DNA of 64,000 bases, from positions 1 through 64,000 of the IMG/VR virus record IMGVR_UViG_3300005613_000018; one strand, given 5' to 3'. This stretch comes from a virus. The number at the start of each line of letters is the position of its first letter. Position 1 is the first letter of the stretch. Below, piece by piece: positions 3,550 to 57,561 of this stretch. Made by a program: the position numbers and the translations under genes. A model generated the notes under the pieces. That model ran no database searches. It was not told the origin of the DNA and saw only the letters and a list, made by a program, of their open reading frames with translations.

Positions 3550-3997
3550 CATATGCATATGTTTGATACCGATATTCAACTCTTAATGAAAGAGATAAAT
3601 GATCTTAAAGAAAGAGTTGAATTTTTAGAAAAAGAAAATATTTCACAGACTAATGAATTATATGAACTGATGAATGAGATAGATTCTAAAAGGTGGAGGC
3701 ATCCAGAATCATGTATTAATTCACTAGATCCATGATTGAATTTTATATTCCATTTATACTTACTTTTGGTGTTTGCTTTTTTGGTATTTTTCTTTTCATC
3801 CTATCAGTATTATCAGAATAATGGTATCATACCTGTGGATGAAGGATTAATATTCCTAAATATTATTTAAACAGAATTTAAACAAATTCACATTCAATAA
3901 TGTCAGACCCATACAGTATTAAACCCCTGCTTTTAGAAGTGGGGGGTGTTTTTATATCTCTTTTAGTCCTTTCAATTCCATTAATAATAATCCTATT

Positions 3998-37376: not shown

Positions 37377-40300
37377 ATGTCGATTAATAAGAAGTTTGTT
37401 GTTAAGTACGGAATTGATGTAGCTGATGAACTTTTAATTGCATCTACAGATCTTGGAGGAGTTGGAATTGGTTCAACTCTTCCGAAAGCAAATTTAGATG
37501 TCGCTAACAATATGAGAGGTGTAGATGGTCTCTATACCGGTATTTTGACTGCCAATAATGATTTTCATGTTGGTTCTGGTGGAACTGTCTTAACTGTTGA
37601 CAGTGGAACTTCAAATGCTGGATTCGGGATAACAAATTCTGAGTATAAATTATCTGTAGTTTCATCAGGTAACACAGCTCTTTATGTTGATGGATCTTTT
37701 GAAGTTACCGAAAATGTAAAAATTGTTGGACTAACTACATTTTCCAGTGGTATAATAGTAGTAAGTGGTGTTTCTACATTAGGTGTAACAACTGTTACTG
37801 ATTTAACGTCACAACAACTTATTGTCTCTGGTGTTTCTACATTAGGTGTAACAACTCTCACCGACTTAACATCACAACAACTTATTGTAAGTGGTGTTTC
37901 TACATTTACAGGAAATATTGACGCTGATGGTGATTTAGATGTAGATGGGCATACGGAACTTGATGACTTAAATGTTTCTGGAGTATCTACATATTCTGGA
38001 TTAGTTGATATGGATGGTGGTGGAAGATCCACAACATTCAAAGTAGAAGATTTAACAGATAATCGTGTTGTGATATCTGGAACTGGTGGTGAACTTGAGG
38101 ATGACGCTAACTTTACCTTTGATGGTAATCAATTAACACTTGGTGCTAGATTAAATGTTTCTGGTGTAACCACTACTGGTGGTTTACTTGATATCAATGC
38201 TGGTGGTCAGGCAAACACATTTAAGGTTGAAGATCTCACAGATAATCGTGTAGTAATTGCTGGAACTGGTGGTGAACTTGAGGATGACGCTAACTTTACC
38301 TTTGATGGTAATCAATTAACACTTGGTGCTAGATTAAATGTTTCTGGTGTATCTACTTTTGCCTCCAATTTAGATGTTGATGGTCATACAGAACTAGATG
38401 ATGTAAACGTTTCGGGTGTTTTAACCTCATCTGCAATTAAAGTAGGCTCAGCAGTTACTATTAACTCCTCAGGTCTAGATGTTCTCGGAATTGTAACAGC
38501 GATTGGTTTTATTGGTGATGGTTCTGGATTAACTGGTGTTGCTAATACTGATGTTATCACCTCGGACTTTATTCTGACTGGAATTCTAACTGCTAGAGAT
38601 AACTTATATGTTGGTAATCCAGTTAGTCCAGGTATTGGAATTACTCTTAATAGTAATGGTAGTGCTGTTTACAGTGGATCTATTACAGCATCTTCATTTT
38701 CCGGAGATGGTTCTAATTTAACTGGTGTAACTGCTGGATATTGGGAAAAAACAGACGTTGGTATTAACACAATATCAAGTGTTGGCATTGGAATTACAAG
38801 TCCATCAAGAAATTTAGATATTAATGGTGATATTAGAGTTCGTGGAGCTTTTTATGACACTAATAATAGTGTAGGTACTGCTGGTTCTGTCATAGCTTCT
38901 ACTGGTTCAGGTTGGGAATGGGTAGTTGCTGGTTCTGGTCCTACTGGCCCTCAAGGAACCACAGGTCCAACAGGTCCAACAGGTCCTACTGGCTCAACAG
39001 GTCCAACAGGTCCTACTGGTGCTCAAGGAACCACAGGAACTGCAGGATCTACCGGTCCTCAAGGAACTACAGGAACAACAGGAAATACAGGTCCTACTGG
39101 TGCTCAAGGAACCACAGGAACTGCAGGATCTACCGGTCCTCAAGGAACCACAGGATCAACAGGTCCAACAGGTAGCACTGGCCCCACAGGTCCTCAAGGA
39201 ACCACAGGATCAACAGGTCCAACAGGTAGCACTGGCCCCACAGGTCCCACAGGTCCTACTGGTCCTCAAGGAACACAAGGTAGACAAGGAACCACAGGAT
39301 CGACAGGTCCAACAGGTAGCACTGGTCCCACAGGTCCCACAGGTCCTACTGGTCCTCAAGGAACACAAGGTAGGCAAGGTAGACAAGGGACAACAGGATC
39401 AACAGGTCCAACAGGTAGCACTGGTCCCACAGGTCCCACAGGTCCTACTGGTCCTCAAGGAACACAAGGTAGGCAAGGTAGGCAAGGAACTACAGGTCCT
39501 ACAGGTCCTACAGGATCAACAGGTGGCACTGGTCCTCAAGGAACACAAGGTAGACAAGGGACAACAGGATCAACAGGTCCTGCCGGGCCCTCCAATGTTG
39601 TTAATGTGTCAACAACAACAGACACTACTACATATCCAGTGCTTGTTGGTTCTTCTACAGCTGGTAATAAAACACCATTAATTGATAGTGGTTTTGAATT
39701 CAATACTTCAACTCCAATGTTGGAGGTGAAATCTACTAGCTCCTCTGGTGGTGTGGTTGCTGGTACTTATGGATCTGGTAGATATTCACATATGTCCGCA
39801 GGTTTGCTCAATTTCTATACAGATGCTTCCTCTTATACATTTTTACAAGGAAGATCTACTGGTGGGGCAATTCGACTCTCCCTTTCATTTGATTCCAGTA
39901 AGTCGTATATAAACAGTGCTAGTACTAACTTATTGCAATTCCAGCCATCAGGTGGCACCACACTTAACACAGGTAATTTTATTCCAACAGTTGATAATTC
40001 CTACTCACTTGGAGGTTCTGGCAACCGATGGACTGCGGTATATGCTGTAAATGGAACAATTCAAACTTCAGATCAAAGACAAAAAACAAATATCACTTCT
40101 TCCAATCTTGGTTTAGACTTTATCACTAGACTCAACCCTGTTTCATATAGATGGATTGAAGGTGGTAAAGTAGTTCAGCGTGAAGAAGATGGAGAGGTAT
40201 CTAAAGATGAAAATGGAGAAATCATCACAACTTCAGTTGCGGGTGTAAGAACTCATTATGGTTTAATCTCACAAGAAGTAAAATCAACTCTTGATGAATT

Positions 40301-40469
40301 AAATGTTAGTGACTTTGCTGGTTGGGTTCTTTCAGATACAAGTGATTCTAATTCTGAACAAGGTCTTCGTTATACTGAGTTTATTTCACCAATGATTAAG
40401 GCAATTCAAGAACAACAAACAACCATCGAATCACTTACATCAAGAATCGAAGCACTTGAAGGTTCTTAA
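37377..40469 (+). CDS. Tail fibre with collagen repeats and C-terminal S74-type intramolecular chaperone
   Basis: VSGVST repeats, (Gxy)n block, TSDQRQK..., [23 protein letters not shown]. Confidence 0.88.
38933..39590 (+). repeat. Collagen-coding tandem repeats ([12 protein letters not shown])
   Basis: 9-bp-period repeats with higher-order duplication. Confidence 0.9.
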
Positions 40470-40890
40470 ACCACTTCATAAACCGTCTACAAGAACCCTC
40501 ACAGTCTTCTGTGGGGGTTTTATAGTATCTGAGTTCTATCATTCTCTGAGAGGTCTCTATGGTCGTCTGTGAGGGTTCTAATCATTCTCTTGACAAGTAT
40601 CATTATCATGAGTAGAATACCTTTGTTAGGGATGATAAGAATGGCTTTGCGTTATTGTTAGTAACCTTTAAAGTTCTCCTGTAATGTATCCAACTGACTA
40701 TGAAACCTAAATTCATTTGTGTTCAACCAAAATCAAGTAAAGCAAAGAACAGATTTGCAAACTTGATGTATAATCTACATTCATGTAGAATTGAACAGGA
40801 AGATGGTGATAAGATTTTTCTTTCATCTATCACTGGCAAATACCACTTCTGGATGAACAAAATCAACGATGAAAACTGGACGGTAATCAA

Positions 40891-41259
40891 ATGACCATTT
40901 CATACAACAAAACTTGGGAAGTAATGAATGGTTTGGAAGAATCATTCAATCGAATCTCAACTCTAGAGTTTATGATTGAACAACTGGGAGAAGCAGTTGA
41001 TAACGAAGATCAACGATCAGTGATTAATTTGACTCGTGCTCTTCAAAGTTTCATGCCTGTTTATGTTAATCAGTATGAAAAAGCATCACAGCGAGCATGG
41101 AATAACACTGTTGGTGAAGTTCGTAAACTAGATAATCCTTATCATAGTTACGAAACTGACAAATCTACATCTAGTCTAGAAGATGTGGACATTGATTATA
41201 ATGAACTTCAAAAGTTTTTTGAAGATGACATCACCGAACAAACTTCCGAAAGAGAATGA
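40891..41259 (+). CDS. Hypothetical protein
   Basis: 122-aa ORF. Confidence 0.65.
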   Translation: MTISYNKTWEVMNGLEESFNRISTLEFMIEQLGEAVDNEDQRSVINLTRALQSFMPVYVNQYEKASQRAWNNTVGEVRKLDNPYHSYETDKSTSSLEDVDIDYNELQKFFEDDITEQTSERE

Positions 41260-42177
41260 TTAATCATCGTATTTTCGAACACATTGAGCCTCAAGATGTT
41301 GAGGCTTTTCTTCAAGATTGTTCCAGTGAAGCCAATAAACTTGGAATCAATCTCGAACATTACATTGAAGAATATGTAATTCTTGAGGAAATTAATTATG
41401 ACTAAAGTTCAAGATCTTATTATTGCACTGAATCAAATTGAAAACTTGGTATCACTTCTCGATGAAAATCCAGAGAAAACATTTATGTTCAATCAGCTGA
41501 TTCCTGTGAAGTATGAACTTCAGAAACAAATTCAAAGTCTGACAAAAAAAGAAGTTGACATTGATTAATTTTTAAGTTATAGTTTGATTGTAATTTACTT
41601 TACTGATGAAATACTTCTTTGTTGTTGACCATTTTGTTCCGTTTCCAACTTCCGAATACGGTGGAATTTGGAATGTAATTGCTGAAAATGAGGAAGAATG
41701 TTTTGACTTAATTTCTCATGAAGATGATGCATTTCATTTTGAGTATTATGGTAAATTAAGGGAAAATATTAGAAAATCCTCTAAATATTCCTTAGTTGAT
41801 GAACTAGAGTCAAAAGTTGTAACCTCATTCCTTACCTAATATGGAAAGTACAAGAGCAATATCCATCATTCAACAACTCAACACTCACATTGCAGAATTA
41901 GAGAAAAAAATTGTCTCTCAAAAAGAAGAGATTTTGGGACTTGAAAATCTTATTAAATTACTTCGAGCAGACATGCCAGACAATAGGGAATTTGATGAAT
42001 GAGTGAAAAAGAAAAACTTGCACTCGGTCTTATGATTGAGAGTGTTTTGAAACCTGATACAAAACTTCGAAGTTGTGCATTCAATCAAGGATGTTATGAT
42101 GAGTTGATGGAGTGGAGGAAGAAAATTCTAAATCTACTCTATCAATACGAAGTTCATGAAAATTCTTTTGATATTCG

Positions 42178-42459
42178 ATGAAATTTCCTTTCAAAGCTCC
42201 TCTAAACCATGAATATTGGACAGATGATTATTCTCAAACTGTCACAAGAATATGGATAAAAAATAAATCGATGGAGTTTACTTATGGTGATGAGAAACAT
42301 CCAAGTTCTGTTTGGGGGTTTTGGGATAAAAAGAAAAAAGTTTTTCTGTCACCGATTAATCATAAAAAACCTGGTAAAGTTGTAAATATTGAAAATTGCA
42401 CTCCATATTCTGCAATGCAACTTAATCTAAATCCACTGATGTCAGCTTTTAACTCATGA
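42178..42459 (+). CDS. Conserved cyanophage hypothetical protein
   Basis: VWGF..SPINHKKPGK..TPYSAMQLNLNPL. Confidence 0.7.
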   Translation: MKFPFKAPLNHEYWTDDYSQTVTRIWIKNKSMEFTYGDEKHPSSVWGFWDKKKKVFLSPINHKKPGKVVNIENCTPYSAMQLNLNPLMSAFNS

Positions 42460-42691
42460 CAAAATACGAGCCAGAAGTAAATGATTACGTTCAGTGGAGA
42501 AATCATCAAGGATGGGTTTATTTCAAGGATGAGGAACATATTACCATTGAAATTGGTGTCAAAGAAAAACCACATTGTGAATATGTAAAAAATAGTTTAC
42601 ATTGTAAAGACCATATTTTGATTGTTTGTCAAAATTGGTATTGGCATGAACTTAAATATGTAAAATCAAGAAAATCAATTTATGAGGAACA

Positions 42692-42916
42692 ATGAAATCA
42701 TCCGATATAGAGTTGTCAACAACATATAGACAATTTGCTTTTGAGAGAATTTCAAGAGAGATTGAAAGTTGTAATGATATTGTAATTCTGAAGGAAGCCC
42801 TTCGTTCTTACGTTAAATTGTTTTTCAAACAACAAGAGACAATATCAAACATTGATGATTTTGAAATAAACATCGGTGGTGATATTCCTCCAGAATTTGA
42901 TGACCCTTTAATGTGA
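42692..42916 (+). CDS. Possible NblA-like phycobilisome degradation adaptor
   Basis: LST..RQFAFERISREIESC..LKEALRSYVKLFFKQQ helix-loop-helix pattern. Confidence 0.4.
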   Translation: MKSSDIELSTTYRQFAFERISREIESCNDIVILKEALRSYVKLFFKQQETISNIDDFEINIGGDIPPEFDDPLM

Positions 42917-43620
42917 GAGAAATGAAAAAAACTTTATTTGGAATTGGTATTTTATTGGCATCTTTATCGATGCCAACAATTAGTAGTGCAAATAATCAAA
43001 ATGATTTTCAACAGAACCCACTTGAATATCCTAATGATTACTATTCTATGCATTCGTTGGGTTGTTTACTTCTCCAAGAATGTAAAGGTGGTATTACAAA
43101 AGTTACCTCACAGTCGGATCTGGAAAACTATTATGATTATACCATTAATGTTGGGGAAGAACTTAATCAGATGTTTAAGTCTTTCGACAAGTTAGGAATC
43201 GAAGTTTATATTGCACCTGAGGAATATTTCCCTGTTGGGCATCGTGGTGTTTACCATACGGTTTCAAATAATTTTTATTTGAATGAAAGATATATGTCTA
43301 AACCTCATGTTTTGATGTCTGTAATTAGACATGAAGGTTGGCATGCTGCTCAAGATTGTATGGCTGGAAGTTTAGACAATACTTTTATTGCAGTCATTAA
43401 AAATGACAATGAAATTCCTCAGTTATGGAAAGACATTGCAAAAGATACTTATCCTTTAAATGCACTTCCTTGGGAACAAGAAGCGATGTGGGCAGGTAAA
43501 GTGGAAAATATGACTGCAAATGCCCTGAAAGCATGTGAAACTGGTGCTATGTGGACGATTTATCCTCCCACACCATTAACTAAAAAGTTTTTAATCGACA
43601 AGGGTTATATTCAGGAGTAA
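42913..43620 (+). CDS. Signal-peptide-bearing HExxH zinc metallopeptidase-like protein
   Basis: MKKTLFGIGILLAS signal; RHEGWHAAQ; WEQEA. Confidence 0.7.
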   Translation: MREMKKTLFGIGILLASLSMPTISSANNQNDFQQNPLEYPNDYYSMHSLGCLLLQECKGGITKVTSQSDLENYYDYTINVGEELNQMFKSFDKLGIEVYIAPEEYFPVGHRGVYHTVSNNFYLNERYMSKPHVLMSVIRHEGWHAAQDCMAGSLDNTFIAVIKNDNEIPQLWKDIAKDTYPLNALPWEQEAMWAGKVENMTANALKACETGAMWTIYPPTPLTKKFLIDKGYIQE

Positions 43621-44276
43621 TGTGGAGAATTTGGTGTTACGCCTTAGGTAAGAAAGAGGGTAGAGATGATAAAGATGCAGATAAGATTGCATTTGTCAGA
43701 ACCATAATTATGGTTCAGTTAGTAATCACTAACATGTTCATCATTTCTGGTAACATAAAGAACTTATGGTTTGATAATTCACCTAGATGTATTATACATA
43801 GTCGAAATGTGACACTTTCTGAAGTGTCCACGACCCCTTGACTTCTAGGTCATTATCAAATATATTATCAAAGTAGTCACCAGGAGTTCAACAATGTCCT
43901 TCACTTACATTCCACAAAAGTCAAAGTATCGGGTTACTCTTGAAATTGATGCAATGGATGATTTCAACCCTCATCAAATTGATTGGGAAAAAATTCTTGA
44001 CCTTCAAGGTTCTGAAAAAGTTGAATCTTATGTGGAGGATCTGAGCACTCCTGATTTCTGGTAATTTACTATGAACACTGTCACTATTCAAAATCCTATG
44101 TTTGATGAAATTAAGGATCTTCCTGGTGAGATCTTCGACATTGACGAATCTGTTTTTGATGACATTGTAAGTGAAGTCATTACAGATGACTGGTCAAATG
44201 TGATTGAAGTTGATTTCAATCAAGATTGATAAAAACAAGAGGAGAACTAAATAGATCTAGGTTTAGTTCTCCTCCA

Positions 44277-44906
44277 ATGAAAACTTTTTCACAATTTATG
44301 ATCGAAGCAAATTATGATCCCGAAATTCAGGGTCGTAGTCAAATTCGTAAATCTGGAGAAGGTGGAAGATTATATCCATCAAAGAAAAAAACTAAACCCG
44401 AAATCCGCAGAATGAAAGCGGTTGGTGGCGGGAAAATGGAACCGGTAGGATATAAAGATAGAAAAGATATTGGTCAACAAAAACCAAAAAGTCAAACTCA
44501 ACAACAACCTCAACAAGAAAGAGGTAGTAAAGAAGTCAAACAAACATACGCAGATAAAATAAAAGCTGAAAGAAGAGCTGCAGCAAAAGCAAGAGCAGCA
44601 GCTAAGAAATCTGGTGGTGAAGTTCAGAAATCTACAACATCTTCAAGGGGAACTGAAAAACAAGCTACAAAACTCCTGAGTACAAAGAAACCTGAGAAGA
44701 AAGTATCACCTAACTATAAACCCCAAAAAGCGTCAGGATATACACGTCAGGAACGCATGAAGATTACTCGTGCTGGTGAAAGAGAACTCTCCAAAGAGTT
44801 CAAGAGACAAGAGTTAGGTAAAGTTGAGAAAGAAACTGGTAAAAAAGCAACTGGTAAGTTGAAGACTATTGCTCTCGCTCGTGCACATCAAAGAATGAGT
44901 ACATGA
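44277..44906 (+). CDS. Highly basic late protein with capsid-targeting-like N-terminus
   Basis: MKTFSQFMIEA resembles T4 internal-protein CTS; late promoter CTAAATA upstream. Confidence 0.65.
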   Translation: MKTFSQFMIEANYDPEIQGRSQIRKSGEGGRLYPSKKKTKPEIRRMKAVGGGKMEPVGYKDRKDIGQQKPKSQTQQQPQQERGSKEVKQTYADKIKAERRAAAKARAAAKKSGGEVQKSTTSSRGTEKQATKLLSTKKPEKKVSPNYKPQKASGYTRQERMKITRAGERELSKEFKRQELGKVEKETGKKATGKLKTIALARAHQRMST

Positions 44907-45643
44907 TTTTTAATGTTAAAGGTAGATGGACTGACTTTCGTGGAAGAAGTCATAATTTTACTATGCAATCGGATAGTGCAGATAGAGATTTGATTCGACA
45001 ATTAGTTGAATCAAGATACCCTGCAGAAAAAGTTTATATCAATAACGTAAGTCAGAATTAAAGTTAGTAACCTCCAAAGTTCTACTGTATTGTAACCACC
45101 ACTAAATCATGAACAATTCTTCTCAAATCCTTCGTGAACTTCAAGATCTCAAGAAAACTCACAAAGTTCAGGGATTTCGTTACACGAATGAACAACAGGA
45201 ACGTTATGATGAACTGATGGGTCTTCGTCGGGCTTTCATTCAATACTGGAATGAAAATGGTATGGTCTGGGTTGGTCCTTCTAACGCTGGGAGTAATTTT
45301 GAAGAGTGATTGAAAACCTTATCTGAATAAAATTATGAAATTTAACACTAAAAAGTGTGACGTTTTCCAAGACGGAGAACATCTGTTTGAATTCAATCAT
45401 CAAAGAATTAAATATCTTTCGAAAGATATTTTGAAAAGTTATCAAAAACAACTTGATAAACTTGCAAAAAGATACAAAAAATGTAACAGTAGTTCAAAAT
45501 TTGAAAGAGCTGAAGACATGGCATCATTGTATTATGAATGGAACGCAACCACTGATGGAAGTACCATTTACATCGTACAATCAAAAGATGATCCAAATAC
45601 TTTCACCTATGTTGAAACTGGAGATGAACTTTACGTCTGACAC

Positions 45644-45671
45644 TTGACACCTCTAGATGAGGTGTTATAAT
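45644..45671 (+). promoter_or_regulatory. sigma70 promoter with overlapping palindrome
   Basis: TTGACA-N16-TATAAT; ACACCTC-N5-GAGGTGT. Confidence 0.65.
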
Positions 45672-45767
45672 AACAATGTCGAAATAACATTACTTTTTCG
45701 ATCCGTCTCTGATCTAACATTACCTGATCAAAAGAGATAAAAACACACATTATTTTGAGGTATCCTC

Positions 45768-46973
45768 ATGTCTAACAAAAAGAATTTTCTGAAGGTTTTC
45801 CCTGTCAAGAAGTCACCAAAGGTGAAAACTATTCGTAACGTAATCTCCGATTATTGTGGAGTGATTGAAGAATCTGAAGGATTTGGATTGGTTGATCCTG
45901 CTGGAAGACCGAAGTATATTGCTCCAGAAAACTGTCAGCGCCCTGAATCCTGGAATGATGAAGATCGTAAGTATTGCTTTGAGTCTATCCTGATGGACCA
46001 ACTAGAAGGTAATCTTATCTTTATCAATTTGAAGGTTGCTATCTCTAAACTAAAAGATCTTGCTCCTGAAGATCCTGCCCTTGAAGAACTTGAAAAATAT
46101 GTACGTCAAAAATATGGATATATTGTCCTGGATGGAAATAATCGAATCTCTTTCCTGACTAATCTTATCACGAACCAGTATAAACTCCCTCGTGGATCTT
46201 TTCCCTATGTTTGTGATGGCAAAGTAAAAACTCTTACCATTGCAAGTAATACATACTTCTCTAACTTGAAAGAAGATGTTCAAGAACTGATCCTTGAACG
46301 TGAATTAGTTATCAGTGAATATACTCAGATCAATGGTCAGAGTATGAGTAATGTTTTCCTTGCTGCTAATGCAGGTTGTCCTCTTAATCATCAAGAACGT
46401 CGCAATGCTCGGTATAATTCTTGGGCATCATGGATTCGCAGTATTCGTCACAACAACAACGATCTGTGTATCAAAGCAGAAGGAATTAACCACAATAAGC
46501 GTCTGAAGGGTGATGAGTTTCTAACTCGAACAATTAATCTTGCTCTTCGTCTCAAATTTATCGAAGAGAGTGAAAATGTTCCTACCGTGACACAACACAC
46601 CATGAACCAAATGTATAGGGGAGACTTCGTAACTGATGAACAAAAAGAATCCTTTGAGGCTAACTTCAACCTCTTGGATAATTGGATGGATCGTCTCAGT
46701 AAACAAGAAAGAATCACTGATAAGATGCTTACAGCATCCACGATGCAAAATCTTTATTGGATGATGACAAATGGATTGACTGAGTATGAAGATGTTGTTA
46801 ATGTTGTTCAAATGCTCCATAAAGCAAAAACCATGTCCAAATATGTTAATGAAGATGGTAACAACTTTGCATGGGCATGTGGAGGCACCGGTTCTAAACA
46901 CAATCAGATGCGACTGAAAGTTTTCTCCGATATTTTTGATAAACTAGGGTCAAAATCAAAGATTTCCTCCTAA
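45768..46973 (+). CDS. DUF262/ParB-Srx-like protein
   Basis: QRPESW, IVLDGNNR, F...N.G.PLN motifs. Confidence 0.65.
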   Translation: MSNKKNFLKVFPVKKSPKVKTIRNVISDYCGVIEESEGFGLVDPAGRPKYIAPENCQRPESWNDEDRKYCFESILMDQLEGNLIFINLKVAISKLKDLAPEDPALEELEKYVRQKYGYIVLDGNNRISFLTNLITNQYKLPRGSFPYVCDGKVKTLTIASNTYFSNLKEDVQELILERELVISEYTQINGQSMSNVFLAANAGCPLNHQERRNARYNSWASWIRSIRHNNNDLCIKAEGINHNKRLKGDEFLTRTINLALRLKFIEESENVPTVTQHTMNQMYRGDFVTDEQKESFEANFNLLDNWMDRLSKQERITDKMLTASTMQNLYWMMTNGLTEYEDVVNVVQMLHKAKTMSKYVNEDGNNFAWACGGTGSKHNQMRLKVFSDIFDKLGSKSKISS

Positions 46974-47049
46974 TAGACACTTTCTAAACTGTCCACCACT
47001 CCTTGACGGGGGTGGTTTTTTCATGTATATTGATTTTATTGATTGATTT

Positions 47050-48234
47050 TTGATGACTGTTTCTCTTCGTCCTCACCAAAAAGAAGCTCTTGAAGCCTTG
47101 ATGAGTAATGATAAAGGACAGTGTATCTTTCCAACTGGTGGCGGTAAGACACTGGTCGGAATTATGGATGCAAAGAAACGATTTGAGTCTGATACTCCTC
47201 GGACTATTGTTGTTGTTGCTCCTCGTATTCTGTTGGCAGAACAATTGTCTTCAGAGTATCTGGAACATATTACTAATGCAAATGTTCTTCACGTTCACAG
47301 TGGAGAGACTAAACATTTCAAGACAACAAAGTCTGACCGTATCAAATTGTTTGTTGATATGTGTCACTCTGTGAGTGAACATGTGATTATCTTCACCACT
47401 TACAATTCCCTCCATCGTGTTCAGGAGTCTGGAATTGATGTAGATACGATTTACTTTGACGAGGCACATAACAGTGTCAAACGTAACTTTTTTGGGCCCA
47501 CTGAGTATTTCTCTGGTCATGCAGATCGTTGTTTCTTCTTTACAGCAACTCGTAAGACTTCCGTCACTATCAACAAACCAGGAATGAATGATCGTGATGT
47601 TTATGGTGATGTGATTTCTCGTGTTTCTGCACCTACACTTGTTGAGGGTGGTTACATTCTTCCTCCTAAAGTGAAAGTGATTGACATGGAAAAACATTCC
47701 ACTAAAGCTATCACTCCTGATATTGACAATGATAACATTTTGACCACGATTGATGATATTGGAATCAAAAAGATTCTGGTATGTGTGAAGACCTCTAAAC
47801 AACTCATCAATCTGTTTCAAACTGACTTTGCAGATGAGTTGACTCAACGGGGTTATTCTTACCTTTATATCACATCTAAGACTGGTGCAGTTATTGATGG
47901 TCAGAAAGTCAATCGTGAGGTGTTTTTCAACACTCTGAACACTTGGGGTAAAGATCCCAACAAGAAGTTTGTTGTTCTTCATCGTTCAATTCTGTCCGAA
48001 GGTATCAACGTGTCAGAACTTGAGGCTGTTATCTTCCTTCGTAACATGGATGTAATCGAAATGACCCAAACTATTGGACGTGTTATCAGAAAGGGTACTG
48101 AGTCCAAAACATTTGGATTTTGTATTGTTCCGAGTTACTCTAAAGTCGGAGTTTCCACCGAAAAGTCACTTCAAAGGTGTGTGGACATTGTGTTTGAAAA
48201 AGGTGAAATGTTGGATTCTGTGGTTCGTAAATGA
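47050..48234 (+). CDS. SF2 DEAH-box helicase
   Basis: LRPHQ, PTGGGKT, DEAH, TAT, LSEGINV, QTIGRVIR. Confidence 0.92.
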   Translation: MMTVSLRPHQKEALEALMSNDKGQCIFPTGGGKTLVGIMDAKKRFESDTPRTIVVVAPRILLAEQLSSEYLEHITNANVLHVHSGETKHFKTTKSDRIKLFVDMCHSVSEHVIIFTTYNSLHRVQESGIDVDTIYFDEAHNSVKRNFFGPTEYFSGHADRCFFFTATRKTSVTINKPGMNDRDVYGDVISRVSAPTLVEGGYILPPKVKVIDMEKHSTKAITPDIDNDNILTTIDDIGIKKILVCVKTSKQLINLFQTDFADELTQRGYSYLYITSKTGAVIDGQKVNREVFFNTLNTWGKDPNKKFVVLHRSILSEGINVSELEAVIFLRNMDVIEMTQTIGRVIRKGTESKTFGFCIVPSYSKVGVSTEKSLQRCVDIVFEKGEMLDSVVRK

Positions 48235-48900
48235 CCTTCAATAATTCTCACATTCTTGATCCTAATCCAGGAGTGATTGGGTTTGTTGTTGACAATGGAA
48301 AGTATGCAGCAATTCCTATTGTTGGGAATGACAAAAAACTTATGGTCATTTACAATGACTGTAAAAGTATGAAGGTATGTAGAAACAAACAATCTGCAAT
48401 AAACTTCATCGAGAAGGAGAGAAAACGAAAGAATAAAAGTTAGTAACCTCTAAAGTTCTTCTATAGTGTAACCACTTCTTTTTTATCATGGCTCGTTACA
48501 AAGTAAATGTTGACAACATTCCTGGACATGGTGCAGGTTCTCGGAATGTAATTGTTGAAGCCGATTGTACTCAAGAGGCAAAAAACATCGCAGAAAACAT
48601 CACTGGAGGAACAGCATATAATTGTTTCCTTCAACGTGAATCTGGTCGTGGTCTTTTTGGTCTTCTTTTTGGTTGATTCATGATTCAAAACAAATCACAA
48701 ATTATCAAAGTTGTTCGTGAAGTTTCTAAATCACACAAATTCACAAGAGAAGAAAAGTTCACGATTTTTGTAAATGTCTGTGACAACATGTTAGAATCAG
48801 GTAAGATCACACAAAAACAACATCACTCCTGGACAAATGTGTTCTGATTAAAGTTAGTAACCTCTAAAGTTCCCCTTTACTGTAACCACTGATTTCAAAT

Positions 48901-49785
48901 ATGCCACTCACTCACATCGAACATCCTGAAGATACCATCCTCACGGGTGATATGACCGCCATTAATGTTCTTTATGGTCGTGGAAATGTTTCTGTGAAGG
49001 TTGATGGAGCTCCTGCAATTGTGTGGGGAATTGATCCTAACAATGACAAGTTCTTTGTTGCAACCAAGAGTGCATTTAACAAGAAAAAGATAAAGCGTTG
49101 TTACAGTATTGAAGACATTTACACACTTTATGATGAGAAAACTCATGGTAGTTTGATTAAAGTTCTGGTTGCATGTTACAAACATCTTCCTGTAACAATC
49201 GGTGTCTTTCAGGGTGATTTTATTGGTTTCGGTGGTAGTGATACTTACACTCCAAACACTTTGACATACAATTTCCCTGAAGTTGTGTCTGAGGATATTA
49301 TCATCGCTCCTCACACTTACTATCTTGGTGATGACTTTCCTACAATGGAAGCTTATCCTATAGAGGGTGAACTTATCAGCACTGATTCTTGTAAATTCGT
49401 TCAACCAATTGTTGATAGAGTTTTTGGTAATAGTCGAGCTCCAAAGATTAACACCGACATGATTGACTTCCTAAGTGAGAAGGAATCAAAACAGGCAAAG
49501 ATGTCAATCAACGCCATCATTCGTTCTGGTCAGGAACTTGATGAAGAGACCTTAATTGACATTGTTGGTTCTCCAATGTTGGCAAATCTTTACATGTTTG
49601 TGTTAGAGATGAAGTATGATTTGATGGAAACTTTCATCATTTACGATTCTCCAGATTGTTATCTCAATGGTGAAAAGATTATGGGTGAAGGTTTCGTAAT
49701 GACTTCTGAAGATGGTAACACAATTAAACTTGTTGATCGTCCTCAGTTTGCATACGCTAACATGACTCAAGGTCGTTTCAATTAA
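48901..49785 (+). CDS. Nucleotidyltransferase/RNA-ligase-like protein (DUF6267-like)
   Basis: THIEHPED, KVDG (motif I), QGDF (III), GEGFVM (IV), IKLVDR (V). Confidence 0.6.
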   Translation: MPLTHIEHPEDTILTGDMTAINVLYGRGNVSVKVDGAPAIVWGIDPNNDKFFVATKSAFNKKKIKRCYSIEDIYTLYDEKTHGSLIKVLVACYKHLPVTIGVFQGDFIGFGGSDTYTPNTLTYNFPEVVSEDIIIAPHTYYLGDDFPTMEAYPIEGELISTDSCKFVQPIVDRVFGNSRAPKINTDMIDFLSEKESKQAKMSINAIIRSGQELDEETLIDIVGSPMLANLYMFVLEMKYDLMETFIIYDSPDCYLNGEKIMGEGFVMTSEDGNTIKLVDRPQFAYANMTQGRFN

Positions 49786-49828
49786 AGTTAGTAACCTCCA
49801 AAGTTCCACTGTATTGTAACCACGTTTT

Positions 49829-50272
49829 TTGATTATGAGCACTCGTTCACGAATTGGTATTGAACTTGCTGACAAATCTATTCTCAGCATCTATCAACAT
49901 TGGGATGGTTATCCTGAGTGGACTGGTCGCATTTTGAACACACATTACACCAATAAAGAGAAAGTTTCTGAACTGATTGATGGTGGTGATTGTTCATCTA
50001 TCTGGACAAAAGATCGTTGGACTGGTAAACAACTTGCCCCATATGTGATTGAACAGAAAGAATCAAAGGAATATGGCCCACAACATTACTCTGGACGTGG
50101 TGAGGATTGTCCTCCTCGTCTTGATAATAATGTGAAAGAGTTTCTCTCTGATGGTGAAGAATACTCTTACATTTTCCGTGATGGTGAATGGATCTGTTAC
50201 AACATGCACCAGTTTGATGAGAGAAAATCTCCTGAAGTTGTTGAGATTCCAAATGGGGCACTTGCCTGTTGA
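49829..50272 (+). CDS. Conserved phage hypothetical protein
   Basis: MSTRSRIG, YQHWDGYPEW. Confidence 0.75.
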   Translation: MIMSTRSRIGIELADKSILSIYQHWDGYPEWTGRILNTHYTNKEKVSELIDGGDCSSIWTKDRWTGKQLAPYVIEQKESKEYGPQHYSGRGEDCPPRLDNNVKEFLSDGEEYSYIFRDGEWICYNMHQFDERKSPEVVEIPNGALAC

Positions 50273-50319
50273 TAAAGTTAGTAACCTCCAAAGTTCCACT
50301 GTATTGTAACCATTGAACT

Positions 50320-50658
50320 ATGATGATCACTCAAACCAAACCCGAATTTCTGACTGAAGCACTGATTGAAGTTTTGAACAACGATCAGAAAGTCAACGCT
50401 ATCGAATCTTCACGAAATACTTATACCAACTTTGAGTATGAAGTGGGTCGAAAGTATATCAAAGTTTGGTCTTATTTGATCTCTGATGGTGAACGTCTTC
50501 GTGGCCGTTCTTGTTACATGTTCGTTGATAAGAACACTGGTGAAGTGTTCAAACCAGCGTCATACAAAGCACCAGCTAAAGGTGTGAGGTATCTTATCAC
50601 TCAACTGGCAGATAATCCTCACATTTGTGATCCTTACGGTTCTTTTCTTTATCTCTGA
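50320..50658 (+). CDS. Conserved phage hypothetical protein
   Basis: GRKYIKV, FVDKNTGEVFKPASYKAPAKGVRY. Confidence 0.75.
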   Translation: MMITQTKPEFLTEALIEVLNNDQKVNAIESSRNTYTNFEYEVGRKYIKVWSYLISDGERLRGRSCYMFVDKNTGEVFKPASYKAPAKGVRYLITQLADNPHICDPYGSFLYL

Positions 50659-50789
50659 TGTTTATGTTTCGAGCATTGTATTACTTTTTTCTGGGAACAT
50701 TCTTTATGATTATCATTCGAGTTTTCTCGAATTAAAGTTAGTTACCTCGAAAGTTCCCTTATAGTGTAGGAACCACACTCTTAAAAACA

Positions 50790-51056
50790 ATGTCTGATTA
50801 CATGGTCAAGATGGGTTCGAAACCTGAAACTTACGAAGATCATTGTCATGATACAATGAGTAAAATGTTGTCGGTAATTCGTTACCTTATGAAGGGTGAG
50901 AATGATCGTGCAAAGTATTGGTTTGAAGAGTTTGTTCTTCCTGGACTTGAAGAAGTGTATAAAGGTCAAGATCCTAAGTATGGTGTAAGTTCCTTCTCTA
51001 TGTTATATCGTGAAGGTAACTTTGACTGGGATCTAATCTGTTCCTCTCCTCTCTGA
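50790..51056 (+). CDS. Hypothetical cassette protein
   Basis: Fills interval between repeat copies 7 and 8. Confidence 0.65.
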   Translation: MSDYMVKMGSKPETYEDHCHDTMSKMLSVIRYLMKGENDRAKYWFEEFVLPGLEEVYKGQDPKYGVSSFSMLYREGNFDWDLICSSPL

Positions 51057-51091
51057 ATTAAAGTTAGTAACCTCTAAAGTTCCCCTATAGT

Positions 51092-51253
51092 ATGAACAAC
51101 AACTATCTCACTGATTACATCGAATCCAAAGGTTACACTGTAAGAGAGTGTTACCGTCCAGCTAAAAAGGAAGTTCCTGACAACATGAAAGATCGTTATT
51201 CTTCCTATGAAGAGTATCAAGAAGCACTGTACGATTTCCTCAACGGTCAATGA
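51092..51253 (+). CDS. Hypothetical cassette protein starting directly after the motif
   Basis: TATAGT-ATG AAC AAC; MNNNYLTDYIESKGYTV...DFLNGQ*. Confidence 0.55.
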   Translation: MNNNYLTDYIESKGYTVRECYRPAKKEVPDNMKDRYSSYEEYQEALYDFLNGQ

Positions 51254-51904
51254 AAACAACAACAGCAACTTATCAGATTGAAGTGACAACTGATGAAGGA
51301 TATTTGGCATTCATCAAAGTCATGCCCACACGTCCAAAAACACATAAGGGCATTCAATCACAGAACAATAAGTTATCAAAATGGGTAGAAAAAAAATATC
51401 CTAACTTTACTTCTTACGACATTTCTCTTCTCGAATTATGAATTCAATCTCAGAAAAGTTTATCGAAGATCGTCTTGTTTATCTGATTGAAAGACTGAAT
51501 AGTGCAGTGAAAGTTTGTCATGAAGCAGTCGAGATTGAAGATCAAGGTTATCCTTACGCAACAGGATATAGTCGGTCAGCAATGCAATCAGTATCAGAAG
51601 AACTTCAAAACATTGTGAAGGAGATTCAACAGAATTAAAGTTAGTAACCTCCAAAGTTCTCCTATAGTGTAACCACTACGTGACCCACTGATTCCCATGA
51701 CTGAAATGACCTACTATGTGATGTTTCAATCTGAAGAACTGGAAATTCCTGAATACATTGGGCCTTTCTATTCTGAAGAGGACGCATCAGATTACGCTGA
51801 TTACAACAATCAAGGATTAGCTAACAATGGTGTTCCTGGATGGAAATCATCTTATGGAGTTGTCTAGGAATTAAAGTTAGTTACCTCGAAAGTTCCCCTA
51901 TAGT

Positions 51905-52147
51905 ATGAACAACACTCAAATGACTCTCACAGAACGAAACGAAAGGCTTTACGAACTTCGTCAGAAACTTAACAAGGCTCGTGCAGAAGTTGCATGGATT
52001 GAACAAGAAATTTGGTTGGTAAAAGATCAATACGATCGTCAAGGTCGTGACATTTATCAAGAAATGTTTGGTGAAAAGAACACTTTATGGGATCATCTTG
52101 ATCGTATGAGTGACACTCCCATGGCTGAAGCAATTTACGGAGGTTGA
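51905..52147 (+). CDS. Hypothetical cassette protein
   Basis: Begins directly after repeat copy 10. Confidence 0.65.
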   Translation: MNNTQMTLTERNERLYELRQKLNKARAEVAWIEQEIWLVKDQYDRQGRDIYQEMFGEKNTLWDHLDRMSDTPMAEAIYGG

Positions 52148-52655
52148 ATCATGACTCTTCACGAACAACAACTCGATCAACTCAAACTCAATTACGCCGA
52201 GATGATTGTTGATGGTATGGATATGAATACTCTCATCACTTTTGCAGTTGAGAGTATTGAACAGAACATGAAAGATTGGGATGAAGAGGATGTTAAGTCT
52301 GAAATCTTAGATCTTTATGGTGAAGAAACATGGGAAAGTCTTCAGGAATAAAGTTAGTTACCTCTAAAGTTCCCTTATAGTATGAACAACATTCAAACGA
52401 CCATGAAGAACACTATCGAACCTAAGTTTCTTATCTACGGTGAATTCATTCGTCCGAATGGTCATCAGAAATATGACATCTTGGGTTACATCGCTTCAAC
52501 AAGAGAGGAGGCAATTCTCAACTGTCGTCGTAACAATCCTCACTTCCACATTATCACTGTACGGGAAGAATCCTGACTATTATTGTTAGTTACCTCGAAA
52601 GTTCTTCTATAGTGTAACCACTACGTGGCACACTACGTGACCCACTAATTTCATC

Positions 52656-53003
52656 ATGAGAAAGATCGAATCTCAAATGTGTCAGGCAATTCAGTCAAGT
52701 CAGAACTGGCAATCAGCTAACACTTGTGTCACATTTGACGAGAAAACTTCCACCTCTTCTGTTTATCTTCATGGTAATCTGATCGCTACTGTGACAGATA
52801 ATGATATGACGATTTATGATGGTGGCTATCAATCAAACACCACAAAATCACGATTAAACGCATTATGTAATGAATTTTGTATTTCTGGTGAAGGAGTTTT
52901 TCAAAAGAATTTCAATTGGTATGTAAGAAAGTTTGTCGGATGTATCAATGGAGAGAATATCTTTCAGACTGAAGAATTCACTGATGGTTACATCTTCACC
53001 TGA
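52656..53003 (+). CDS. Conserved phage hypothetical protein
   Basis: VYLHGNLIA, GGYQSNTTKSRLNAL. Confidence 0.75.
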   Translation: MRKIESQMCQAIQSSQNWQSANTCVTFDEKTSTSSVYLHGNLIATVTDNDMTIYDGGYQSNTTKSRLNALCNEFCISGEGVFQKNFNWYVRKFVGCINGENIFQTEEFTDGYIFT

Positions 53004-53074
53004 CTATTAAAGTTAGTTACCTCCAAACTTCCCCCATTACATAACCACTACGTGACCCACTACGTTCAATCATT

Positions 53075-53407
53075 ATGTTCACAACTGAAATGACCTTTGA
53101 AGTTATGAATCCTGAATTTGCTGGATGTTATCTGGCTGTGTGTGATGGTGATATTTCTACCACTAAGTTCTTTGACACTAAGAATGAAATGTTTGGTTGG
53201 ATTCTTGATATGTTAGAGAATAAAGGTTATGATGAAGTTCAAACTACTGTTATGGGTAAAAATGGTGAAGTAGAAGAAAAACTTCTCTGTAAAAAAGTGA
53301 CCTATCTTCGTGATGAAGATTGTTATAAAGGTGGAAAATATGAACCTGAGATTGGTACTGATATTCGAGCAATTTACCATTATGAAGATAAGTTCTCTTG
53401 GGTCTGA
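53075..53407 (+). CDS. Hypothetical cassette protein
   Basis: Follows repeat copy 13. Confidence 0.6.
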   Translation: MFTTEMTFEVMNPEFAGCYLAVCDGDISTTKFFDTKNEMFGWILDMLENKGYDEVQTTVMGKNGEVEEKLLCKKVTYLRDEDCYKGGKYEPEIGTDIRAIYHYEDKFSWV

Positions 53408-53528
53408 TTTATCTCTTTTAATGTAACTCAAACTATCTAAATAACATTGCTTGTGTGTAGTTACCGAGCAGACTTGGGAGGCTTTGGGCCTCCTTTGTCG
53501 TATAAATAAGTATAACTACACACACGGC

Positions 53529-54146
53529 ATGAATAACTTTTACACTTACGCTTTTTTGCGTGAGGATGGTTCTCCTTACTACATTGGCAAAGGTAGTGGA
53601 TGTAGAGCTACAAAAAAGAGATATGTGGGTGCAAAACGACCCAAAGATAAGAGCAGGATTATTATACTCAAAAACAACTTATCAGAGGAAGACGCATTTA
53701 AGCATGAAATTTATATGATCAACATATATGGTCGTAAGAACAATCATACGGGCATTCTTCATAACTTCACAGACGGAGGTGAGGGATGTAGTGGTATGAA
53801 ACACACCGAAGAGTTCAAGAGAATTAGAAGTGAAAAATATACAGGAAAAAAGAGACAACCTCACACAGAGGAGACTAAACAAAAGTTGAGGATTTCTCGC
53901 TCCAATCAAACTGACCCCCGATTAGGTACAACACACACAGAGGAGACAAAGAAGAGACTGAGTGAACTTAAATGCAAATATGTGTATGAGTTGACATCAC
54001 CTAAAGGGCGGAAATATGTTGCCAATAGTTCTAATTTATTCTGTAAAGAATACCCTGACTTAGAGTTAAATCCCGTTTGTATTCGTCGTGCCTCAACATC
54101 ATCAAACATGTATAAGGGTTGGTATATCATAAGACGAGAGAGATAG
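53529..54146 (+). mobile_element. GIY-YIG homing endonuclease with NUMOD3 repeats
   Basis: FYTY..PYYIGKG, LHNFTDGGEG, three HTEE repeats; TATAAATA at 53501. Confidence 0.85.
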
Positions 54147-54194
54147 AGTTAGTAACCTCTAAAGTTCTTCTATAGTGTAATCAGTTATGCACTC

Positions 54195-54461
54195 ATGATT
54201 GAATCTAACCTCTCCAAAATCAAACCTTGCTTAAGAACAACTGGCCAAGTAACTGGCAATTGGGGAAGACCAAAAGTTAGGACTCATGGTAACACTGACT
54301 TAGGATTTACCACTAAAGAGAACATTACTATGACAACACAAGATGATTATTTGAAGAGAATGTATCAGGCTTTTGATAGAACTGATGACCCTAAAATGAA
54401 GAAATTCATTTATAATGAGATCCGAAAGATTATGGTTCAAAGAGGATTGTGGAATGACTGA
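54195..54461 (+). CDS. Hypothetical cassette protein
   Basis: Follows repeat copy 14. Confidence 0.65.
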   Translation: MIESNLSKIKPCLRTTGQVTGNWGRPKVRTHGNTDLGFTTKENITMTTQDDYLKRMYQAFDRTDDPKMKKFIYNEIRKIMVQRGLWND

Positions 54462-54462
54462 T

Positions 54463-55284
54463 TTAAGGTAAAAGAGAGGAAGGTTTTCTTCCTCTTCTTC
54501 CACATTTTGTTCCTTGTAATCTTGCAGCTTTTTTGGCTGTTTCTGAATTAAATCCACATTTTGATGGTGTCCAATTTGATGGAACTTCATTTCTCCACAG
54601 ATACCAACCTTTACAACTATGTTTGTTATCATCTGGTGAATTTATAGAAAGGTGGATATTACCATTTGATGTCCTTTGACCTGATATAAACTCAGCACAA
54701 TCAGCCTGAGTTGGCCATTCACCACGTTCACCATTTTTATGTAATCCGTATATTTTACCTCTTCTATTCACTCTTGATTTTTTATCAACTAAGTTCTCAT
54801 TTTTCCAACTCCATCTATATCCACCAGCTTGAAATGTAGTTCCTTTAATGCACGCAGTAATTGATGATTTCATCACACCTAATTCTTTTGATGCTATTCC
54901 TCTACTATCATAATCACGAATATGTTCTCCCTCTAATGTATAACAACTGATAGGTTTAATGTTACTATTAGAGAGGTTATAAAGGTCTCTTAATACACCA
55001 CTACCACCTAATGTTGAGTTGTATCCATTGTGATAACTATCTAACTTTTCTATCCAGTATTTCTCTCTCTCACTTACAACATCTTCATTACAGGTTTCTA
55101 TTACATAGAAGGTAAAATTATCAACTCCTTCCTCACATATTGCATTACAGATGTCCATATTATTATAAGGTGATGTAGCGTTGTAGATGTGTTCTTTCCA
55201 CCTAATATGAGGGTCTTTCTTTCTCGTTAGACCGACATATTTCCTATTGGTTTCTTTATGCTGAATGACATAGATTGAAGCCAT
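54463..55284 (-). mobile_element. GIY-YIG homing endonuclease with NUMOD1/HTH-like domain
   Basis: SIY-x9-YVG, EREKYWI, GYNSTLGG; TATAAATA (-) at 55306-55313. Confidence 0.85.
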
Positions 55285-55412
55285 TGGATAATACTCAATT
55301 AGATTTATTTATATAGGGTAAGTGTTAAAAATAGACCCCTAATTGATTAAAGAAAGGTAAAGTTCTATTTTATACATTGTGGAAAAACCTGTGGAAAACT
55401 ATGTTAATGAAG

Positions 55413-55514
55413 GAGTTAATCTTCTCTTTTATCTTATAAACCTCTGAGTTAATGTTCTCTTTTATCTTATAAACCTTCGAGTTAATGTTCTGGAAACTCT
55501 TATAAACCTTCGAG
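55413..55514. repeat. Three tandem 33-bp repeats (iteron-like)
   Basis: GAGTTAATSTTCT...TCTTATAAACCTYY at 55413, 55446, 55479. Confidence 0.85.
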
Positions 55515-55910
55515 GCCTTGTGATCTAAGATGTTCTAACATAAGGAGAACGATTTGTCAACCCCCAGACTCTGAAATCCTCACAATCCCCCCTCTCAAAG
55601 TGTCATAAAGACACACAGATTTCTTATGATTCTAAGCACTAAAAAAACCAATTAAGGGTGAGTTTTTTATAACTCCTTGGCAACCCTTTGATATTCAGTT
55701 GTCTGCTATTTGTCGATCCTTGAGTGTTAACCAGTTTATGTGGAGTTTGTGTCTGACCATTGACCCCGTAGGATGGTTCAGTGTTATAAACTCAACGACC
55801 AGTTATTGAACACAGTGGAACAAATAACTCAACTATTTATAACAAACTCATTTTGAATTAAAGTTAGTAACCTCCAAAGTTCCCTTATAGTGTAGGACAT
55901 CAATCACCAA

Positions 55911-56165
55911 ATGACAACCACTTTCCAAACCAATCTTACCGACACCAGCTACAACGGTTGGACGAATTATGAGACTTGGAATGTAGCCCTTTGGATCAAC
56001 AATGACGAGGGTTTGTATCACTTGGCTCAGGAAGCAGGTAGTTATGAAGATTTCGTAGATTACCTGGAAGCATGTTCTTTCAACAAATTATCTACGAAAG
56101 ATGGTGTTAACTACCGTGATCCTAAAGTTAACACTCTCGAACTGAATGAAGACCTCTTTGATTGA
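55911..56165 (+). CDS. Conserved phage hypothetical protein
   Basis: YNGWTNYETWNVALWINNDEGLY. Confidence 0.75.
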   Translation: MTTTFQTNLTDTSYNGWTNYETWNVALWINNDEGLYHLAQEAGSYEDFVDYLEACSFNKLSTKDGVNYRDPKVNTLELNEDLFD

Positions 56166-56928: not shown

Positions 56929-57561
56929 ATGATTAAGTATCGAATGTATGAAAGAGAATTGACAGGAGGTGGTGTCTGGCAAGATCATGATTGTGTTGAT
57001 AATTTTGAAGAATATAATATAAATTTGGACAAGTATGGTCTTGGTAGAACATCGAGTAATGAGACATCACCTCATAATTATATTCATGTATTTGCTACTC
57101 ATGAATATGTAAAGACATTAGAACAACATGTATTAGATTTTTTCGATATATCTGTCAACTTTCCTGTCACGTTCTTCACAAGAAAGGTTCCATTTACCTC
57201 AGATTTTAGATGTGGATTTAGTTTTGATACTTATGAGACATTTAATTCAACATATTATGATCAGGCTATAATGACACGTAACATGTTAAATGGATTATAT
57301 GAGAGTATAAACTTATCAGGGGATTTTACAAGTACTGGTGACTTTATTGATGATTCAATTCATATTGAAATCAATCCCATACAAACTCAGGAAACTTACA
57401 ACAGAATTAAACAAATAATTACTGATACATATGGAGTCAGTAATTTTGTATATCCTGACAGTGTGTTTGCCAATGGACTTCCAGTTTACTTCCATTTCAA
57501 GATAAAATATGGAACAGATGGATTAGTCATTAAATTTTATAATTTAGATAAGAATGTATAA
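56929..57561 (+). CDS. Hypothetical protein
   Basis: 210-aa ORF. Confidence 0.65.
   Translation: MIKYRMYERELTGGGVWQDHDCVDNFEEYNINLDKYGLGRTSSNETSPHNYIHVFATHEYVKTLEQHVLDFFDISVNFPVTFFTRKVPFTSDFRCGFSFDTYETFNSTYYDQAIMTRNMLNGLYESINLSGDFTSTGDFIDDSIHIEINPIQTQETYNRIKQIITDTYGVSNFVYPDSVFANGLPVYFHFKIKYGTDGLVIKFYNLDKNV

Follow-up and report, generated by a model that had tools for sequence, protein, structure and literature searches.

A stretch of 64,000 nt, the window (positions 1 to 64,000, one strand, of IMG/VR record IMGVR_UViG_3300005613_000018), carries an array of 15 co-oriented copies of a motif of about 40 bases, each heading one or more open reading frames (ORFs). The anatomy of the motif and its conservation suggest that each copy is probably a transcription start signal of a hyperplastic accessory-gene region, and that the repeat is also a recombination seam. 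The whole record is a 99.6-kb IMG/VR fragment with an estimated completeness of 47%. It comes from an uncultured T4-like cyanomyovirus whose kinship to the cultured Synechococcus phages is distant. The array occupies a small-gene region with large fibre-like genes on one side and the next block of conserved genes on the other. The recognisable proteins of the region are a helicase, DUF6267, DUF7717, Kyano_Gp96 and PHROG families of unknown function. The region spans 40.6-56 kb of the window and corresponds to gp55-gp93 of Syn9, helicase included, and to 36-50 kb of SynMITS9220M01.

A repeat finder and a pattern scan agreed on the 15 copies, all of them on the + strand and confined to 40.6-55.9 kb (Table 1). 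Their consensus is TAAAGTTAGTWACCTNNAAAGTTC-N3-TAnnnT-AACCAC. The sequence GTTAGTWACCTNNAAAGTT is matched exactly by 14 copies and with a single mismatch by the remaining one. In shuffled sequence 0.64 matches are expected at three or fewer mismatches, and none of 100 shuffles reached 16. The sole extra match, at 26056 on the - strand, has three mismatches, which is chance level, and the pattern scan found no further copy across the 99.6-kb record. Every copy sits between + strand ORFs and spans the gap from a stop codon to the next start. In all 14 scorable cases the upstream stop codon lies against the motif or overlaps it (gap -9 to +4 nt), and six copies supply this stop codon themselves, as the TAA of TAAAGTT (45061, 49785, 50735, 51638, 52351 and 54146). 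Successive copies within 48.4-54.2 kb are separated by 414, 934, 490, 460, 326, 577, 236, 477, 232, 427 and 1136 bp.

Much of this had been noticed in a first-pass annotation of the sequence, which described 15 co-oriented intergenic copies, 12 of them within 48.4-54.2 kb at 232-1136 bp, with stop codons overlapping or abutting the motif, no TTGACA beside it and no copy elsewhere in the window. The count was recovered exactly, the spacings and the stop codons were confirmed, TTGACA was found at none of the 15 copies, and the absence of the motif elsewhere extends over the whole record. Other details hold in part. Cassettes of one to three small ORFs follow 12 of the 15 copies, but copy 1 heads 16 ORFs and copy 2 five, among them proteins of 401 and 394 amino acids (aa). 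The next start was placed 0-45 nt downstream; the next ATG does lie 12-40 nt past TAnnnT in 12 copies, whereas in three the annotated ATG overlaps this -10-like hexamer. The near-palindromic centre breaks down in five copies, which read the non-palindromic GTTAGTTAC. TATAGT, given as the usual end of the motif, is present in only nine copies. It starts two bases before TAnnnT, which occurs at a fixed offset from the upstream boxes in 14 of the 15 and is the better description (in the forms TAGTRT, TATTGT, TAATGT and TACTGT).

The elements GTTAGT-ACCT and AAAGTTC are invariant in 14-15 of the 15 copies while the NN and N3-4 spacer positions differ freely, which points to selection on each copy. 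TAnnnT is the minimal signature of a -10 element. Upstream of it are two boxes. At about -27 to -17 lies the proximal one, CTNNAAAGTT, which is common to the family of related motifs (with AAAGTG in other lineages), and at about -37 to -29 the lineage-specific distal one, GTTAGTWAC. No copy has a sigma-70 -35 hexamer; the -35 position reads TAGTAA or similar, and none of the 15 scores as a sigma-70 promoter. This anatomy fits a promoter in which the two specific boxes would have taken over the function of the -35 element. A promoter class with its own, unknown factor was one of the two proposals of the first-pass annotation, and on the grounds of anatomy and comparison it is the best supported, as a putative class.

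In the proposed mechanism, the host RNA polymerase with its primary sigma factor would read the -10 hexamer, and a separate putative factor would read the upstream boxes. Transcripts are predicted to start about 7 nt downstream of the hexamer, at the C-A step in the conserved AACCAC or AGCAC tail. This start would leave leaders of roughly 5-33 nt that lack a Shine-Dalgarno sequence. Terminator-like hairpins between cassettes or abutting copies were not found, except for a weak one at 52562. With no terminators between cassettes the messages would be nested and polycistronic.

The motif belongs to a wider family. Its exact 19-base core was found at 42 IMG/VR loci, with up to 11 copies each, and the downstream half, CTCTAAAGT-N5-TATAGT, at at least 115. 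The family consensus is ACCTCTAAAGTGTCCCTATAGTRTRAGCAC. The multi-copy loci tabulated have a common plan consisting of a 9-10-base distal box, CCTCTAAAGTG, four variable bases, TATAGT and RTRAsCAC. Lineages share the proximal half, CCTCTAAAGTK-N4-TATAGTRT. The distal box, in contrast, falls into at least eight discrete classes between lineages among the multi-copy IMG/VR loci. One class, GTTAGTWAC, is that of the window's clade and others; further classes are GTTACTCAC, ATAGCTCAC, AACTTGGATC, AACTGAAGC, CACTGAGGC, AACAGGGAGC and GCTGGCC. A TTGACA-like hexamer 17 bases upstream of TAnnnT was found in none of the classes.

A contig almost always has one class of distal box. The sole exception is a chimeric copy in locus L116 (positions 3592-3650), in which a foreign distal box, AACTGAAGC, is fused to a proximal half and tail of the resident kind; it stands with three copies of the resident class. 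The chimera may be the mark of an exchange between lineages that crossed over in the half they share. A blast search against the other loci did not single out its donor.

The family is also present in cultured phages. The complete isolate SynMITS9220M01 has 12 copies, all forward, within 36.3-50.0 kb of its 190 kb, and copies are found in S-SM2 and in the S-B05/S-B43/RN05-S/RB11-B group. Genes for DUF6267, DUF7717, the family of the ORF at 51905 and Kyano_Gp96 stand behind a copy in both the window and SynMITS9220M01. That the same genes keep a copy in front of them although the proteins are only 42-76% identical argues that the copies are old, orthologous and maintained. All copies of the window combine GTTAGTWAC with AAAGTT and all copies of SynMITS9220M01 combine GTTACTCAC with AAAGTG. 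The same substitutions thus appear to have spread through, or to have been selected in, every copy of a genome. Such uniformity could come from gene conversion among the copies or from co-evolution with a lineage-specific factor. The free variation of the spacers argues against wholesale homogenisation and would lean towards the factor.

A lineage-specific factor is central to the alternative that survives best, which we regard as a tentative possibility. The copies would be activator-dependent delayed-early or middle promoters, the distal box near -30 binding a phage-encoded activator that replaces -35 recognition in the manner of MotA/AsiA, and the few host-type promoters of the region would fire first and supply the activator. 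In phage T4, MotA-dependent middle promoters pair a -10 hexamer with a specific box near -30, which stands in for the -35 element. The array motif has the same geometry; its box sequence however is unrelated, and it has the additional proximal box. The distal box is invariant within a genome, differs at orthologous copies and diverges into the classes described above, a pattern which suggests a partner encoded by the phage rather than by the host. Near-consensus sigma-70 promoters, such as would be needed to supply the activator, occur in the region at 40590 (just upstream of copy 1), 41555, 45644 and 56557. On the other side, no candidate activator was identified, and to our knowledge T4-like cyanophages lack MotA and AsiA; we know of no homologue of either in cyanomyoviruses. 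The foreign distal box of L116, lying beside resident copies, argues against a strict requirement, and gene conversion could also give the uniformity within genomes.

The second part of our reading, the recombination seam, was examined by comparing the window with nine IMG/VR loci that are 85-99% identical to it over shared genes. In 44.9-57.6 kb there are 20 internal synteny breakpoints, and 10 of these fall within the span of a motif copy, although the motif covers 8.4% of the region (binomial P = 1.4e-6). The clearest event is in L032, where two copies enclose a 127-aa gene at the place of the window's single copy 48439. Upstream of the first L032 copy and downstream of the second the two sequences match, and the switch in homology is inside the repeat. 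At the 45063 site L057, L046 and L029 have an extra 1.5-kb cassette between two copies, with endonuclease-like and methyltransferase-like ORFs, and a smaller cassette is similarly placed at 55863 (Table 1). Order varies too. In L045, L052 and L059 the gene at 51905 stands behind the copy that in the window heads 50790, and is itself followed by the cassettes of 51092 and 51697, despite 94-100% identity of the shared genes.

These events are explained by ordinary homologous recombination between direct repeats and not by a site-specific reaction. Direct repeats of 35-45 bp every 0.2-1.1 kb would allow whole cassettes to be deleted, inserted or reordered, by recombination between copies of one genome or of co-infecting relatives. 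The events at motif-free junctions are mostly insertions of self-mobile genes (Table 1). Two routes of gene flux can thus be seen in the region, recombination at the repeats and insertion of homing endonucleases at motif-free junctions.

Several observations weigh against the picture of start signals that double as seams. First, the start site, the timing and the strength of transcription are all deduced from the sequence. Second, at 51092, 51905 and 52382 the annotated ATG, the sole one in each case, overlaps the -10-like hexamer, and these three ORFs would need a downstream start, which is present in two of them, or read-through from upstream. Third, searches of the 99.6-kb record, 47% complete, found neither a sigma factor nor an RNA polymerase gene. 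Fourth, breakpoints occur at 9 of 14 motif junctions and at 9 of 15 other junctions (Fisher P = 1). As there is no preference for the motif over gene junctions generally, its role in recombination may be incidental. The motif is a seam, not the preferred seam. The comparison of cassettes between relatives, which the first-pass annotation had put forward as a check, thus gave breakpoints at the motif and no excess over other gene junctions.

The motif could instead act in RNA, as a processing site, stabiliser or translation enhancer in long read-through transcripts rather than as a promoter in DNA, but we consider this improbable. The absence of terminators between cassettes makes it probable that transcription from upstream runs through the motif, and a site just before start codons, as the motif occupies, would be apt for a signal of processing or translation. 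The spacing from motif to start codon, however, varies from -2 to 40 nt. No conserved secondary structure was found, an Rfam search was negative here, and the fixed offset of TAnnnT together with a lineage-specific upstream box is typical of recognition in DNA.

The other proposal of the first-pass annotation, an integron-like exchange in which the copies are analogues of attC/attI and a dedicated recombinase captures and excises cassettes, is hardly credible. Like integron sites, the copies are co-oriented repeats that delimit gene cassettes in a cassette-like layout, and repeat-flanked units have been gained and lost. Motif-flanked cassettes do differ between relatives, with one crossover inside the repeat, so that exchange at the motif stands as a claim and the integron-like mechanism does not. 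The annotation itself had seen no recombinase in the window, and no Phage_integrase (PF00589) or Resolvase (PF00239) domain was found in the 99.6-kb record, 47% complete, nor a PF00589 match in the complete SynMITS9220M01 genome with its 12 copies. The motif has no foldable imperfect inverted repeat; 61-nt stretches centred on six copies folded as single-stranded DNA no better than shuffles (minimum free energy 0 to -3.5 kcal/mol; z -0.04 to +1.7), and the five copies with a non-palindromic centre break the 4+4 palindrome. Each cassette has its own promoter-like head whereas integron cassettes are promoterless, and many breakpoints are at motif-free junctions, which break as often as the others. 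With no recombinase found in these searches and no foldable site, an integron-like system was rejected.

Other candidates were also tried and rejected. CTAAAG and CTATAG recall the promoters of T3 and T7; no PF00940 match for a single-subunit RNA polymerase was found in the record, in a search whose controls were uninformative, and we know of no T4-like phage that encodes such an enzyme. A search of the incomplete record for a phage sigma factor found none. NtcA sites (GTA-N8-TAC) and sigma-28-type promoters (TAAAGTTT-N11-GCCGATAA) do not fit, by eye, in spacing or second half-sites. The record has no locus for a small RNA with GTGGTTAC loops complementary to the motif tail; the two + strand occurrences of that sequence are inside genes.

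As an arrangement, the array has a precedent, and the claim that it is an undescribed system does not stand for the kind of element. The closest analogue is the promoter-early stem-loop (PeSL) cassettes of the T4-type phages RB49/phi1, T4/PST and KVP40/nt-1 (Arbiol et al. 2010, PMC2839356; Comeau et al. 2014, PMC4122927). PeSLs are short, conserved, co-oriented, promoter-bearing repeats of a hyperplastic region, where they head small ORFans. Each combines a strong sigma-70-like early promoter (TTGACA-like, N17, TATAAT-like) with an adjacent terminator stem-loop, and recombination between copies explains indels and shuffling among relatives (PMC2839356; PMC4122927). Excised mini-circles are a further trait of PeSL cassettes. 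A study of S-PM2 found no comparable PeSL density in that cyanophage. The array resembles PeSL cassettes in being confined to a hyperplastic region, beside small genes that differ between close relatives, and in showing indels and replacements by recombination between copies (L032; sites 45063 and 55863), here in no excess over other junctions. It differs in three respects. The copies have two specific upstream boxes in place of a sigma-70 -35 element, they have no adjacent stem-loop terminator, and the host of the phage is a cyanobacterium. As the defining sigma-70 promoter and stem-loop are missing, the array is not a PeSL in the strict sense. Thus the arrangement is already known in kind, and the array is a set of promoter-like heads that is widespread but lineage-restricted in T4-like cyanophages. 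T4-type late promoters are also different; their word at -10, TATAAATA, is in none of the copies and occurs four times in the window, twice ahead of homing-endonuclease genes.

The first-pass annotation had also allowed for a match to a characterised cyanophage promoter. Doron et al. 2016 reportedly described a novel regulatory element of early genes in the T4-like cyanophages Syn9 and P-TIM40, said to be abundant among T4-like cyanophages. It is reported to be a non-canonical repeated motif ahead of small genes in the same syntenic region as the array, and counts as a second precedent for this kind of element. The comparison was with the two genomes themselves, and in scans of these the family of the 15-copy motif was absent. 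In Syn9 the best score of a position weight matrix (PWM) was below the shuffled maxima, and k-mer, repeat and pattern scans were negative for the motif family; pattern matches in P-TIM40 and Syn9 were at the level of a reversed-pattern control. On these scans, which found no copy in Syn9 (k-mer, repeat, pattern and PWM) or P-TIM40 (pattern), the motif may well differ from the Syn9 element. Literature searches on the words of the motif, or on a published account of the early motif of cyanophages, returned nothing usable.

Syn9 does have about five copies of RRGTGKCMC-N30-TATTCTATAAGAGT, which resemble not the 15-copy motif but a second, two-copy element of the window, class B. Class B (43811-43866 and 46976-47031) consists of the dyad GACACTTTCTGAAGTGTC followed 6 nt on by TTGACK-17-TATATT; its second copy reads AAACTGTC and overlaps a strong terminator-like hairpin at 46995-47016. 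The half-site AAGTGTCCAC precedes about five Syn9 genes (46304, 47262, 48572, 51014 and 53010). Class B and the 15-copy motif have the words AAGTGTCC and GTGT-N3/4-TATA in common; the repeated element of Syn9 shares with the 15-copy motif only the GTGT-N3/4-TATA core. Ahead of the helicase gene stands the class B dyad-plus-promoter in the window and a motif of the 15-copy type in SynMITS9220M01. The two classes probably serve the same stage of infection.

Table 1. Motif copies of the array and events at motif-free junctions, in window coordinates. L numbers are IMG/VR loci.
Feature	Position	Core start	Strand	Genes headed and remarks
Copy 1	40653..40693	40657	+	TATTGTTAGTAACCTTTAAAGTT...TAATGT; heads 16-ORF block 40700-45061
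Copy 2	45059..45099	45063	+	TAA is the stop of ORF 44903-45061; heads ORFs 45109, 45335
Copy 2 breakpoint	45055-45058			Against L057, L046, L032, L029
Copy 3	48435..48475	48439	+	Heads ORFs 48488, 48680; L032 has two copies and an extra cassette here
Copy 4	48849..48889	48853	+	Heads DUF6267 gene 48901-49785; SynMITS9220M01 orthologue also behind a copy
Copy 5	49783..49823	49787	+	Heads ORF 49836-50272
Copy 6	50273..50313	50277	+	Heads DUF7717 gene 50320-50658
Copy 7	50733..50773	50737	+	Heads window-specific ORF 50790-51056; synteny with L046, L052, L059 ends at 50780
Copy 8	51059..51099	51063	+	Heads ORFs 51092, 51250, 51438; breakpoint 51056
Copy 9	51636..51676	51640	+	Heads ORF 51697-51867; breakpoint 51628
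Copy 10	51872..51912	51876	+	Heads ORFs 51905, 52151; first gene behind a different copy in L045, L052, L059
Copy 11	52349..52389	52353	+	Heads ORF 52382-52576; breakpoint 52349
Copy 12	52581..52621	52585	+	Heads Kyano_Gp96 gene 52656-53003
Copy 13	53008..53048	53012	+	Most degenerate copy (AAACTT; TTACAT); heads ORF 53075-53407
Copy 14	54144..54184	54148	+	3' end of GIY-YIG homing-endonuclease insertion; heads ORF 54195-54461
Copy 15	55859..55899	55863	+	Heads ORFs 55911, 56162; L037 and L034 have two copies and an extra 71-aa cassette here
Motif-free event				HNH endonuclease in L032
Motif-free event	53451-54146			GIY-YIG endonuclease
Motif-free event	54463-55284			GIY-YIG endonuclease
Motif-free event	45644-46973			DUF262/GmrSD_N-like gene with its own perfect promoter
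Motif-free event	56929-57561			Unknown 210-aa gene

The mobile genes of the region have signals of their own. The first GIY-YIG gene, in 53440-54146 and also with a NUMOD3 match, is preceded by the late-promoter word TATAAATA (53501-53508). This word falls within an extended hairpin (-35.8 kcal/mol, z -4.5) in which the region of the start codon is paired; a GC hairpin nested in it, with a T-run behind, looks like a terminator. The same layout is known from I-TevI of T4, where early mRNA made by read-through is silent in translation and it is the late transcript that is active. The stretch 53412-54200, with this gene and motif copy 54148, is absent from L037 and L045. The second GIY-YIG gene, on the - strand in 54463-55313, is preceded by TATAAATA at 55313-55306, and a diverged GIY-YIG gene is present at the same site in relatives (L037:1343-2119). 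The 401-aa ORF in 45644-47016, with a weak match to GmrSD_N (DUF262), has its own terminator and a perfect sigma-70 promoter, TTGACA-16-TATAAT with a TG extension. The ORF is missing in each of the four near relatives covering the site and looks like a recent insertion of a nuclease-like gene.

Three further repeats were noted in or near the array. A 14-nt unit, CACTACGTGRCMCA, stands once or twice in tandem in the leaders behind copies 9, 12 and 13 (51674-51696, 52617-52653 and 53046-53068). About 550 bp at 55320-55860 have no long ORF and contain three 33-bp tandem repeats at 55413-55511. The 1030-aa fibre-like ORF 37377-40469 has a long run of 9-nt periodic repeats at 38927-39460; the alignment with near relatives is poor and repetitive there, which marks it as a variable stretch of the gene.

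As a kind of element the array is not new. T4-like cyanophages are among the most abundant viruses of the ocean, and how their transcription starts without MotA and AsiA is only partly understood. The cassette maps show, at base resolution, how the accessory region of uncultured cyanophages is reshuffled through repeated promoters, as we read them, and homing endonucleases. It is conceivable, though doubtful, that a transcription factor encoded by the phage, and either packaged in the virion or made as soon as infection has begun, replaces -35 recognition and has the lineage-specific distal box as its recognition code. In cyanomyoviruses such a factor would do the work that MotA/AsiA do in T4. 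The promoters would have diverged together with it into at least eight classes of specificity, as happened with RNA polymerase and its promoters in the T7 group, and the shared proximal half would still let cassettes recombine across classes. The combination of a shared and a lineage-specific half provides a testable handle on the reader of the box, in cultivable carriers such as SynMITS9220M01 and S-SM2.

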